Position numbers and translations under genes: made by a program
Shown: one piece after another, positions 48,599 through 51,500 of the stretch
Position numbering within the stretch: the stretch's first letter is position 1
Layout: each line of letters begins with the position of its first letter
The notes under the pieces: model-generated
The model's database searches: none
Seen by the model: the letters and a program-made list of their open reading frames with translations, nothing else
What the model was told of the DNA's origin: nothing
Source: a virus
Strand: one strand, 5' to 3'
Virus record (IMG/VR): IMGVR_UViG_3300045988_072096
DNA length: 64,000 nt

Positions 48599-51500
48599 TT
48601 AAAAACTAAATATCGGTATATCATCTTGTACGCTATTGTCCTAGAACCACTATGTTCCAAACAATGGCAATTCAAAGAGTTCAACCTATTTATTCTATTC
48701 TTGTGATTTGCTAACCTTCACCTAGTACAACTCTTCTCGATATATCATAACCATGCATAATGCTATCACACGGTCTACGTTCTTAACGCCATCATTTTCT
48801 ATAAGTTCTTCTATTAAAGGTTCGCTATATACTCTCTCTACGTTAGGATGCCCAGGTTCATATTCCTCAAGTAACCACTCTAGGATAAGTCCTTCTCCAT
48901 ATGCTCTAATCTATTTAGTCATATGACATCCTTTACGTCTTTGTACCTTACTGTCCTTAAAGACCTCAGAAATAATCTTATCGGGCTAATCTGCAAGTAA
49001 GTAATCACAGTGTTTGTTTGTGAAGTACGGGTATATACCCTTACGTTCATTCTCAAATAATAATCTAGCATTATAGAACACTAATAGTTTTCTGACGTTC
49101 TCATAATACTCTTCTGCTGTATCAGGCCTACCTGAATATTCTGCTACTATTACATCATTCCAAGCTTCGCCAGCTTTTACACGTTTGAATATGAATACAG
49201 ATCCTAATGAATTTGTAAATGAATCATCATGGTCATCAATTTGTTATCGTTAAGCTTTTTATCTTAACTTCTACATGTCCCCATGTAGTTCAGCATATAT
49301 TATCACCAAAATGGCGTCGAGCACTCGTGGGAGAATTATATTTATTCATCTCCTATGCGTTACACTGTCTTATAGCCTTTCGCAATCTATAAGATTAGCA
49401 CGGTGTTTTCTGTTCTAGACTTTCACCGTTTTTACTCGATTATACCCCGCTGATAATTAACGGGTCGCAGTTATGTGTCAAAATGTTTCTGCACATAAAT
49501 GTATGTGTACCACATTCAAAATTGTATACATAACCGCTATACAACGATGATTCTATTTTTTCTATTTTGATCAGTATTTTATTATCAACGAATTTTATTT
49601 TACTTTTAGCAATTCCAGTAGTCTTAGAAAGTTCTAATACTTTTATCTTTCTGCTCCTGTATTGCGGATTTACAGCAAGAAACAAATTATCCTATCTACA
49701 TACATTTATTCTATACGATTGTTTTGATATGCCACCAAACCTGTTTTTATTCTATTTCTGATGCAAAACGATCGAATTGCGTATCTTTAATGAAAACAAC
49801 ATATCCTGTATATCTTCCAACAATTCTAAATTAACACTTGTAAAATTGCATCTAACTTTTCCATTGTCGTAAAATACAGATCCGTCTGTATCTAAGTATC
49901 CTTGTATAAAAGCTAACTTTAGATCTTTTGGAGACTATTTAATCCATTCCGGAACTCTTTTATTATACGCATTTGTACCGAATTGTTCACATAAATAATT
50001 TGCAAGATTTTTGTATGTAAACCTACGTGTATTTTCTCTATTTTTATGTACATGCACGCATTTTCTTTTGAATAATTTGTCAATTAATTTATCATACATT
50101 TCTGCAAATTCGGTCTCGTCTTTACCTATAGATAAATATATATCGTGTGAATTTTTATTTATATTTACAAATCCGTCTCCAAGCCATAAACCTAAGAAAT
50201 AATAAAAAAGTTGTTTATGTTTGTCCCCATTTGTTTCATTATTATAATATCTGTTTGGAATTTCAAGCCAATCTGTTTCGCTCAAATCTTTAGCTTTTAC
50301 AAAACCTTTATTGTGTATCCATATAGGATGTTCACTAGTAAACGTAGTTGTTCTAAATGATCCATACGGCTTTATTTTAAATATAGGTTCGTTTTCTTTT
50401 CTATATAACTATTGATTATGTATTTCGACAAACTGATTATCTTTATTCAACAACTTATCGTCAAGAGTAACATCTTCGACATTTACCAATCCTCGCTACG
50501 TATAAACCTTTTCTCCAGGTGTCAAACATCCTCCAATATACAATCCAAATGGCGGATCTTTTATGGGATATTCCCATATAACTATAGATCCATGTGGTTT
50601 ATCTCCTTTCTTAAGCGGATATTCAGTAATATCTCCAGACTTCTTTTCTGTAGCTATTATCTAACCATTACCATCCCAATTGAGATCTACTATATGTTTC
50701 ATATTACGTAGTTTTGTATTTGTACGTATACGTGTAAGCTAATCCATCAAAAGTTTTCTTGGAAATATATTCTTACCTAACTCAAGTACAGCCTCTCTTG
50801 GTTTAATAGGACGTTCTGATATAAATCTATCTATGGACTATTGTGAAGCACCTCCGTCTTTAATCTTATTACGTTGTTCTATTAGATTCTCAATAGCTTT
50901 CTCACGAAGACTATTTCCGTCTTTATCCATATAGATATAATTTCCATCTTTGTCAAAAGATTCTAGATTACTCCATGAAGGAACAAAGAATCCACAATTA
51001 GTTTGTTCAGCATTATCATCCCATATGTTTGGAAATGCTAATACGTTATATGCTTCAGGTTTATAAAATAATTCCTTCAAACCTGTAAATGAAGCTCCCT
51101 CTGTACCACCTGTACCATAAGCTATCATTAGACCAAAAGCTACACCGTCGTCAGTTTCTACAGACGGTTGTTCTATTCGCCACGCATCTAACAAGCCGGG
51201 GAACTTACCTCCCTCCTCCCATAGTACTAATTTACCACGAGTACCACGAATACGTTCTGGATCGTTCTTAAGTGTTATTCCACTAATAGATGACATATAA
51301 CCTTGTTCAGTCTATTTACCAAATTCGTCAGTTACCTTATAACCAGCTACGCGTTCCATACGAGTAGATACAAGCCTTTGTTTAGCCCATGCTGTATTCT
51401 TGTCTATAAAGTCCATGATTTGCCAAGCTTTTGTTAGCAAACCATCTCCTATTAAGAACTTTTGTTCTGATGCTACAGCAAAGTTTTTAGATCCAGGTAT

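Follow-up and report, generated by a model that had tools for sequence, protein, structure and literature searches.

Introduction

In the Delta group of crAss-like phages, it has been reported that 'TerL typically contains an intein', with TAG codons present in both the intein and the extein of this terminase large subunit (Yutin et al. 2021, Nat Commun 12:1044, PMC7886860); the TerL intein of Delta-group phages was mentioned again in a 2023 review (PMC10136315). Here, we analyzed the terL gene of the IMG/VR virus record IMGVR_UViG_3300045988_072096, whose whole stretch of 64,000 nucleotides (nt) is referred to as the window. In our reading, to which we assign a probability of about 0.88, this is the terL gene of a crAss-like phage that reads TAG as Gln, and it carries one homing-endonuclease intein and one adjacent group I intron without open reading frame (ORF), located 10 nt apart. 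Like the Delta-group TerL inteins in PMC7886860 (e.g. cMAG OBYQ01000140), the predicted window intein is of Hint type with an endonuclease, contains TAG codons and resides in the same gene of the same phage group. Different from that report, in which introns were detected via their endonuclease domains and neither the particular site nor an adjacent ORF-less intron was described, the window combines both elements. The TerL intein of recoded crAss-like phages is already published, whereas the stacking of intein and ORF-less intron is apparently unreported.

Several inteins of solved structure, including PI-SceI (Sce VMA1), TliVMA/PhoVMA, PI-PkoII and PI-PfuI, share with the window intein the Hint domain split by a two-motif LAGLIDADG endonuclease and the same catalytic residues. 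However, their sequence identity to the window intein is 12–14%, they are larger (∼430–540 versus 353 amino acids, aa), and the host of the window intein is a phage terminase in which TAG encodes Gln. TerL inteins of actinobacteriophages likewise invade conserved functional terminase sites (bioRxiv 10.1101/2025.01.02.630785); one site described there lies in the ATP-binding Rossmann fold, and the host phages are unrelated to the window phage.

For the intron, the closest described system comes from Lactobacillus delbrueckii phage JCL1032, whose terL carries a self-splicing group I intron (Riipinen & Alatossava 2004, Arch Virol 149:2013, cited in PMC6669764); relatives of this intron occur in terL of Staphylococcus Sextaecvirus phages. 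According to PMC6669764, which refers to that study, no other group I introns of Lactobacillus phages than those of JCL1032 are proven. The terL introns of JCL1032 and its relatives have a core homologous to that of the window intron, with P3–P9.1 in common. Like the window intron, the JCL1032 intron is ORF-less, ∼225 nt in length, located in terL and terminated by GATAACA..G. The insertion sites differ: the JCL1032 intron interrupts Walker A (GRKNG/KT) and the SscS-F1 intron interrupts Walker B (VADEV), whereas the window intron interrupts a presumed nuclease motif. The JCL1032 and Staphylococcus introns belong to phages of Firmicutes and have no adjacent intein; the window phage is a crAss-like phage of Bacteroidota.

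Neighboring elements in one gene have precedents. In nrdE of Bacillus phage SPbeta, an intein occurs together with a group I intron (cited in PMC3653736), and neighboring inteins in Haloferax MCM interfere with co-homing (PMC10643990). Both systems resemble the window in the stacking of self-splicing parasites in one conserved gene, with separate histories and possible homing interference. Different from Haloferax MCM, the window has two types of element, one at the protein level and one at the RNA level; they lie 10 nt apart in one conserved motif, in a gene that also depends on stop-codon suppression. Gulyaeva et al. only mention the joining of TerL fragments 'potentially split by introns'. 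In the literature, we found no description of a group I intron without ORF that is separated by 10 nt from an intein in a crAss-like terL, or of the separate distribution or unusually high conservation of such an intron.

Results

The 353-residue insertion in TerL is a predicted class 1 intein

The source of the window is a crAss-like phage of Suoliviridae (Delta group) that is close to Cacepaovirus simiae cr131_1 and reads TAG as Gln; its terL locus is 95% identical in DNA to the RefSeq record of cr131_1 (NC_055902; Crassvirales; Suoliviridae; Oafivirinae; Cacepaovirus simiae; from macaque feces). The initial annotation had proposed a 353-aa in-frame intein at positions 49470–50528. On the plus strand, this interval is full of stops; on the minus strand (50528..49470), the coordinates are exact, giving 1059 nt and 353 codons in frame within terL. 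The motifs it had named can each be read directly in the translation. The insertion starts with CLTPGEKV, contains block B (FTSEHP; TxxH, with T-S-E-H at residues 64–67) and two LAGLIDADG motifs (LGLWLGDGF and IQGYLDTDGS), and ends with NILTHN (His352-Asn353), which is followed by the +1 Cys of the C-extein. The catalytic set of class 1 inteins (Cys1, TxxH, His-Asn and +1 Cys) is present, and it is kept in all homologs covering these positions.

Intein and Hint profile searches gave matches on the insert. Pfam LAGLIDADG_3 (PF14528) matches two stretches above the cutoff (E = 3e-16) and PT-HINT matches with E = 0.02. The NCBIfam matches are models of intein-containing proteins (e.g. IF-2, RNR, Tes, DnaB, Pol II and GyrA), the sole exception being a weak match to XepA (E = 0.004). 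The best sequence match in the PDB is PI-PkoII (1e-6). Taken alone, these profiles point only weakly to a Hint splicing domain. Stronger indication of the Hint fold came from structure prediction, though for P0001, a 67%-identical homolog located at the same TerL site. The AlphaFold model of P0001 has a predicted local distance difference test (pLDDT) score of 80–95 across the intein and a predicted template modeling (pTM) score of 0.78. In a fold search against the PDB, its top 16 matches are all homing-endonuclease inteins (TliVMA, PI-SceI, PI-PkoII, PI-PfuI and PhoVMA), with E of 2.5e-16 to 8e-12 and TM of 0.52–0.70; next comes I-DmoI, which matches the endonuclease domain alone (TMt ∼0.7).

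A search of a large protein collection returned 39 homolog clusters, all metagenomic. All aligned homologs that cover the junction are inserted at LYI(G/A)G/CLTPGEKV...THN/CDP; in 16 sequences, no variation occurs at the catalytic residues Asp118 and Asp215 or in the glycine framework of the two LAGLIDADG motifs. Compared to cr131_1, the ratio of nonsynonymous to synonymous divergence (dN/dS) of the intein is 0.05, indicating purifying selection. The intein and extein of the window are, respectively, 97% and 99% identical in aa to those of cr131_1, 68% and 82% to those of cr7_1, and 48% and 55% to those of cr118_1; the divergence of the intein therefore tracks that of the extein.

Uninterrupted alleles define the insertion precisely. 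The cr130_1 TerL is one continuous 685-codon ORF without intein, reading ...LYIGGCDPYDHDDSF..., and the stretch across its junction is ...PPFGLYIGGCDPYDHDDSFTNSLG.... From this ORF, both junctions can be placed: the intein separates GGA (Gly470) from TGY (the +1 Cys), and the second element lies in the Tyr codon. The TerL of contig L032 also reads ...LYIGGCDP... without intein, and alignment to the TerLs of cr130_1 (92.6% aa identity) and L032 leaves a clean gap exactly at the site. In cr7_1, one homologous intein and one intron occupy the same sites as in the window. In cr118_1, a standard-code phage of another subfamily, the very same site is occupied by a homologous intein of 371 aa (48% identity), without TAG and without the second element.

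Taken together, these motif, homolog and fold data support the assignment of the insertion as a class 1 intein with a two-motif LAGLIDADG homing endonuclease. Purifying selection and the patchy distribution of alleles lend indirect support to the predicted cleavage of the empty allele by the endonuclease. The initial annotation thus correctly recovered a feature that had already been published, and did so in a genome with 95% identity to a RefSeq record.

In other crAss-like TerL genes, we observed in-frame insertions of ∼300–370 aa at five or more other sites, each ending with ...HN before C, S or T. They occur in L004, L015, L016, L017 and L018 (Dulem virus 42, cr53_1, cr56_1, cr111_1 and MT835839), at about aa 133–179, 264–286, 378–431 and 631 in window numbering. 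Judged by these termini, they are probably further inteins.

TAG codons are shared by extein and intein

As the initial annotation had stated, the intein contains TAG codons; there are five in frame, and no TAA or TGA. In the exon 1 frame, TAG is also the sole type of in-frame stop. The N-extein and the intein together contain 9 TAG, 3 CAG and 17 CAA codons, and TAG aligns with Gln in relatives (window NQ*LYRK versus cr118_1 NLQRYKK; window GK*TEQ versus cr130_1 GKQTE*). Two of the five intein TAG codons are common to the 68%-identical intein of cr7_1, the others being lineage-specific. The shared codons support a long residence of the intein in recoded genomes, one of the two possibilities raised in the initial annotation.

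The window encodes one suppressor tRNA with anticodon CUA, which is presumably needed to translate TAG in both extein and intein; it is unlisted by Rfam at the gathering threshold. The CUA tRNA of cr131_1 is annotated as tRNA-Gln. Despite the 95% identity of the two phages, the window tRNA (57463–57536, minus strand) and the tRNA-Gln(CUA) of cr131_1 (L033 9258–9330) are quite different in sequence; the suppressor tRNA may have been replaced or independently acquired between them.

An ORF-less group I intron lies 10 nt from the intein

The initial annotation had the intein splitting TerL at ...LYIGG / CDPYDHDD. The N-terminal side (PPFGLYIGG) is correct; CDPYDHDD, however, is not contiguous in the DNA and arises only after removal of 223 nt (49459..49237), an intervening sequence that was not mentioned. 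After TGC GAC CCG T (49469..49460), the frame continues TAATTATCAGC..., translating as CDPLIISGV followed by TAA, whereas (Y)DHDD resumes ∼220 nt downstream, at 49236, in a different frame. Joining T49460 to A49236 gives CCG T/AT GAC CAT GAT GAT (P-Y-D...), identical to the uninterrupted cr130_1; the predicted spliced exon junction is ...GACCCGT/ATGACCATGA.... Compared to five relatives, exon 2 has a ratio of nonsynonymous to synonymous differences (pN/pS) of 0.02–0.13; this constraint implies in-frame expression, for which exactly these 223 nt have to be removed.

The doubly spliced product of 685 aa matches PHROG 6681 'terminase large subunit' with E = 6e-145. Used as a tblastn query, it matched 158 phage records, 117 of them at ≥80% coverage, with exon 2 corresponding to query aa 475–685. 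The window TerL is 98–99% identical in aa to that of cr131_1 and 92.6% to that of cr130_1. In RefSeq, the TerLs of cr131_1 (L001 1501–4837, NC_055902) and cr7_1 (L003 1119–4480, NC_055895) stop a few codons into the intron; ∼840 nt, encoding the whole C-terminal domain (exon 2), is unannotated, and neither an intein nor an intron feature is given.

The 223-nt sequence contains no ORF and has the predicted architecture of a group I intron. In P1, the exon end CCCGU pairs with the internal guide sequence GCGGG, with U.G at the 5′ splice site, and the intron ends with a terminal G at 49237. Helices P3, P4, P6, P7, P7.1, P9 and P9.1 could be assigned, and P5 and P8 are proposed. P7 (CGCAUA/UAUGC-U-G) shows one compensatory change from A-U to G-C and forms a pseudoknot with P3; our first manual P7 (CAGUGUA/UAUGCUG) was dropped, as covariation pointed to CGCAUA/UAUGC(U)G. 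Covariation was analyzed on 12 members aligned with MAFFT, not fitted to any structure, and scored on 43 pairs of P3, P4, P6, P7, P7.1, P9 and P9.1. Paired cells make up 93.4%, compared to 28–42% in slid controls, and compensatory double changes occur in 30 of the 43 pairs; none of 500 shuffles reached the observed values. The minimum free energy z-score of the intron is −3.5, more stable than the shuffled sequences.

Homologs of 68–78% identity were found by blastn in the terL genes of Staphylococcus Sextaecvirus phages and Lactobacillus phage JCL1032; in JCL1032, the TerL coding sequence is annotated as a two-piece join. The P1 exon and guide strands are AACGGU/GCCGUU in JCL1032 (Walker A), GACGGU/GCCGUC in SA2, GAGGU/GCCUC in SscS-F1 (Walker B) and CCCGU/GCGGG in the window. 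Across these four insertion sites, guide and exon partner change together, with the terminal U.G kept in each, and all four introns end with GATAACA..G. The 10-nt exon segment TGCGACCCGT is identical in all seven intron-containing alleles, whereas the intron-less alleles differ from it at synonymous sites (cr130_1, TGTGACCCTT; cr118_1, TGCGATCCGT). Such fixation of the exon P1 partner only in intron-containing alleles is expected if the P1 pairing constrains the exon. Together, the junction, homology and covariation support a group I intron at 49237..49459, for which self-splicing is predicted. Coordinates of all features are listed in Table 1.

Table 1. Elements of the interrupted terL gene and the suppressor tRNA in the window
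Feature	Coordinates	Strand	Description	Basis
terL exon 1 / N-extein	50529..51938	-	470 codons; ATG at 51938; 4 in-frame TAG; ends ...PPFGLYIGG	Translation
Predicted intein	49470..50528	-	353 aa; class 1, with inserted LAGLIDADG homing-endonuclease domain; 5 in-frame TAG	Motifs and profiles
Exon segment TGC GAC CCG T	49460..49469	-	10 nt between intein and intron; +1 Cys, Asp, Pro and first base of Tyr	
Predicted ORF-less group I intron	49237..49459	-	223 nt; inside Tyr codon; terminal G at 49237	Junction, homology and covariation
terL exon 2	48599..49236	-	Last two bases of Tyr codon, DHDDSFTNSLG...; TAA at 48601..48599; C-terminal domain, presumed nuclease	
Suppressor tRNA	57463..57536	-	Anticodon CUA; cloverleaf fold; anticodon loop CU-CUA-AC	ARAGORN

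A search of the window with the intron family using nhmmer gave no further copies. One second, different group I intron is located at 55700–55916 (minus strand) in the dUTPase region (Rfam RF00028, 55.4 bits, E = 2.4e-11). In cr50_1, cr1_1 and prototype crAssphage, the dUTPase adjoins an annotated 'intron-encoded HNH endonuclease'; cr131_1 matches only the downstream exon of this region and is apparently without that intron. As a conservation control, the 55700–55916 intron had no usable counterpart, being absent at the corresponding place of cr131_1 and having no listed match in cr7_1.

Both elements interrupt one invariant motif

Both elements are located 10 nt apart at GG/CDP-Y/DHD, a motif that crAss-like TerLs share without change. 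Within G-x-D-x-x-D-x-D, the Asp of CDP and the D-x-D after it are kept even in TerLs of 32% identity. TerL generally consists of an ATPase and an RNase-H-like nuclease. Based on the invariance of the motif and this general architecture, the site probably represents the first of the catalytic motifs in the C-terminal nuclease. In some intein-free TerL lineages, the +1 Cys is replaced by Ile or Val, and such sites could not support splicing.

Intron and intein have separate histories

To define the distribution of the intron, IMG/VR was scanned with a 46-nt intron core as query, which returned 14 contigs. The intron is present at this terL site in six of them, five also having the intein (two being cr7_1 and cr131_1). 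The sixth, L032, has the intron without intein, with flank DPPLGLYIGGCDP/intron and TerL residues 1–473 contiguous; one further contig, L022, ends inside the intron. In addition, of 12 intein homologs that reach the C-terminus, 10 run into the intron and two (P0032 and P0033) continue without it. Four allele states can be distinguished: empty (cr130_1), intein only (cr118_1, P0032 and P0033), intron only (L032) and both (window, cr7_1 and cr131_1).

The identity profiles are also different. Between the window and cr7_1, nt identity goes from 74% in the N-extein to 67% in the intein, rises to 97% in the intron and falls back to 77% in the C-exon, the changes at the borders being abrupt. Over all pairs, the introns are 95–100% identical, compared to 78–99% in the adjacent 300 nt of exon and 70–99% at the intein end; the intron divergence is below even the nonsynonymous divergence of the TerL exons (pN 0.09–0.13). 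Polymorphism in exon 2 begins at +5, leaving no co-conversion tract. The C-exons of L032 and cr7_1 are 99.5% identical, and these two differ in the presence of the intein. The four allele states and the identity profiles indicate that the intron moves independently of the intein; its copies probably descend from a later common ancestor than the sequences around them, the intron having spread recently on its own.

The other seven of the 14 contigs noted with this core (L019–L021, L023–L025 and L027) carry a ∼85%-identical copy in other genes, at two further insertion sites, with different guide and P2 regions. Judged from these copies, introns of this ORF-less family have entered several genes of related phages.

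Weighing of the reading and its alternatives

Several results weigh against our reading. The match of Pfam Intein_splicing (PF14890; E = 6.9e-6) has 26.4 bits versus a gathering score of 35.8 and is below the cutoff, and the structure model is that of P0001 in place of the window intein. The covariation count was limited to P3, P4, P6, P7, P7.1, P9 and P9.1. Rfam gives no group I (RF00028) match at 49237–49459 even at E ≤ 10; the matches of CRISPR-DR40 and mir-1542 to this gap are at chance level (E > 1). However, RF00028 also misses the terL intron of JCL1032 and its Staphylococcus phage relatives (E ≤ 0.1). Since the homologous JCL1032 intron is missed, the silence of Rfam on the window intron is uninformative, and we read it as a sensitivity limit for this subfamily. 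For the nuclease placement, nothing relevant was returned by phmmer against the PDB with the spliced TerL, by Pfam on the C-terminal 243 aa at E ≤ 10, or by a five-sequence profile of diverse crAss C-termini against the PDB; HLA matches in these searches were spurious. The high identity of the intron could be due partly to strong ribozyme constraint instead of recent transfer. In the literature, we found no demonstration of either splicing reaction or of endonuclease activity in any crAss-like phage.

It is very improbable that the insertion represents the remnant of an intein, either degenerate or unable to splice, or an endonuclease domain fused to TerL, with terL being a pseudogene or TerL working with the insert retained. 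The sub-threshold Intein_splicing score would fit such a remnant, as would the broken appearance of terL under the standard code (TAG stops and the frame break after CDP) and the annotation by RefSeq of only a truncated TerL in cr131_1 and cr7_1. However, Cys1, TxxH, His-Asn and the +1 Cys are intact and conserved, both the intein (dN/dS 0.05) and the exon past the frame break (pN/pS 0.02–0.13) are constrained, and TerL is essential and present as the sole copy in the window; the structured intron explains the frame break exactly, and the suppressor tRNA explains the TAG stops. We give equally little credit to the possibility that the 223-nt gap is not an intron, being crossed by translational bypass (ribosome hopping or programmed frameshifting) or separating the two parts of a split TerL (ATPase-intein and nuclease). 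Apart from the Rfam result, what speaks for it is that unspliced mRNA would give N-extein-intein-CDPLIISGV-stop, with the complete intein retained. Against it stand the group I-type fold with strong covariation and P3/P7 pseudoknot, U.G at the 5′ junction and the terminal G, the homology to the JCL1032 terL intron, which Rfam likewise missed, and the restoration by excision of the exact ortholog sequence within a codon. Exon 2 has no ATG or other start context, and its first in-frame stretch follows a TAA; to our knowledge, 223 nt is far above any translational bypass.

With an intein and a group I intron as the preferred assignment, the question is how the two moved. That they form one co-mobile unit, the ORF-less intron hitch-hiking by co-conversion when the break made by the intein endonuclease is repaired, is suggested by the 10-nt distance, by the intron following the intein in 10/12 homologs that reach the C-terminus, and by the lack of an own endonuclease in the intron (223 nt, no ORF). 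We regard it as improbable in view of the intron-only (L032) and intein-only (cr118_1, P0032 and P0033) alleles, the 97% intron identity next to 67% in the adjacent intein between the window and cr7_1, the nearly identical C-exons and introns of L032 and cr7_1, which differ in intein presence, and the absence of a co-conversion tract in exon 2. Hitch-hiking was largely rejected on these allele states and identity profiles, although occasional co-transfer of the intron with the intein may occur. Extreme purifying selection on the ribozyme combined with vertical descent, instead of recent lateral spread, has a somewhat better standing but is still unlikely as the cause of the near-identity. Such constraint would agree with the absence of synonymous sites in RNA, with the mainly synonymous nature of the exon differences (pS 0.7–0.8) and with the location of all copies at one site; on the other hand, the intron divergence of 1–5% is lower than the pN of the flanking exons (0.09–0.13), family members of the same fold tolerate 15–30% divergence, identity falls sharply at both intron borders, and the patchy presence, including the absence from cr130_1, fits gain and loss. 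Independent recent spread of the intron is the reading that we retain.

Proposed expression pathway

Our analysis covered the anatomy of the locus and its homologs, the predicted fold, the covariation of the RNA, the alleles without insertion and the signs of selection; from these, we infer RNA splicing, protein splicing, endonuclease activity and the mobility route of the intron. The terL pre-mRNA would self-splice: guanosine would attack after the U of CCCGU (U49460), which is paired to GCGGG, and the terminal G49237 would define the 3′ splice site, with restoration of the Tyr codon and the frame. Translation with the phage tRNA(CUA) would then yield a 1038-aa precursor. In this precursor, the N-S acyl shift at Cys1 would be followed by transesterification to the +1 Cys and by cyclisation of Asn353, helped by the penultimate His, to release the 685-aa TerL and a free LAGLIDADG endonuclease. 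During co-infection, the free endonuclease would cut intein-less terL, leading to homing. The unspliced RNA still encodes N-extein-intein-CDPLIISGV-stop, so we speculate that the endonuclease might also be made without RNA splicing. With intron, TAG codons and intein in one gene, RNA splicing, TAG suppression and protein splicing would all be needed for functional TerL.

Other features of the window and of cr131_1

At 58168–58250 (minus strand), the window contains one tRNA-like gene with ∼15 extra nt in the anticodon region (Rfam tRNA, 39.6 bits; called by ARAGORN as an 83-nt tRNA-Ala(agc)). It adjoins a normal tRNA-Val (58278–58353), and cr131_1 has no annotated tRNA at the corresponding place; the gene could be an intron-containing or otherwise unusual tRNA. 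The dUTPase-terL interval is ∼2.6 kb shorter in the window (∼51938–55300) than in cr131_1 (NC_055902 11364–17336), indicating an indel of one or more genes. In cr131_1 (L033 27379–29758, NC_055902), the annotation splits the major head protein into two pieces that flank an HNH endonuclease gene, which is consistent with the endonuclease-carrying intron of the major capsid protein gene described for Delta-group phages by Yutin et al.

Discussion

TerL is the standard phylogenetic marker of Crassvirales. For a gene in this use, unrecognised ORF-less introns, inteins and TAG recoding corrupt the marker alignments and the gene calls. In our reading, the decoding of one essential gene departs from the standard in three steps, with a ribozyme that splices the RNA, suppression of stop codons and splicing of the protein. 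Its four natural occupancy states provide a comparative system for the interaction of neighboring selfish elements.

More doubtful is the idea that the 10-nt spacing is functionally meaningful. In this less probable reading, the intron would spread alone by a route without co-conversion tract, such as reverse splicing guided by the 5-nt pairing CCCGU/GCGGG or the action in trans of a free-standing endonuclease. As it changes the DNA from +11 of the target of the intein endonuclease, it might also block or permit homing of the intein, with the two parasites competing or cooperating for one catalytic motif. If true, the locus would be a natural system of intein-intron interference in an abundant lineage of gut phages.

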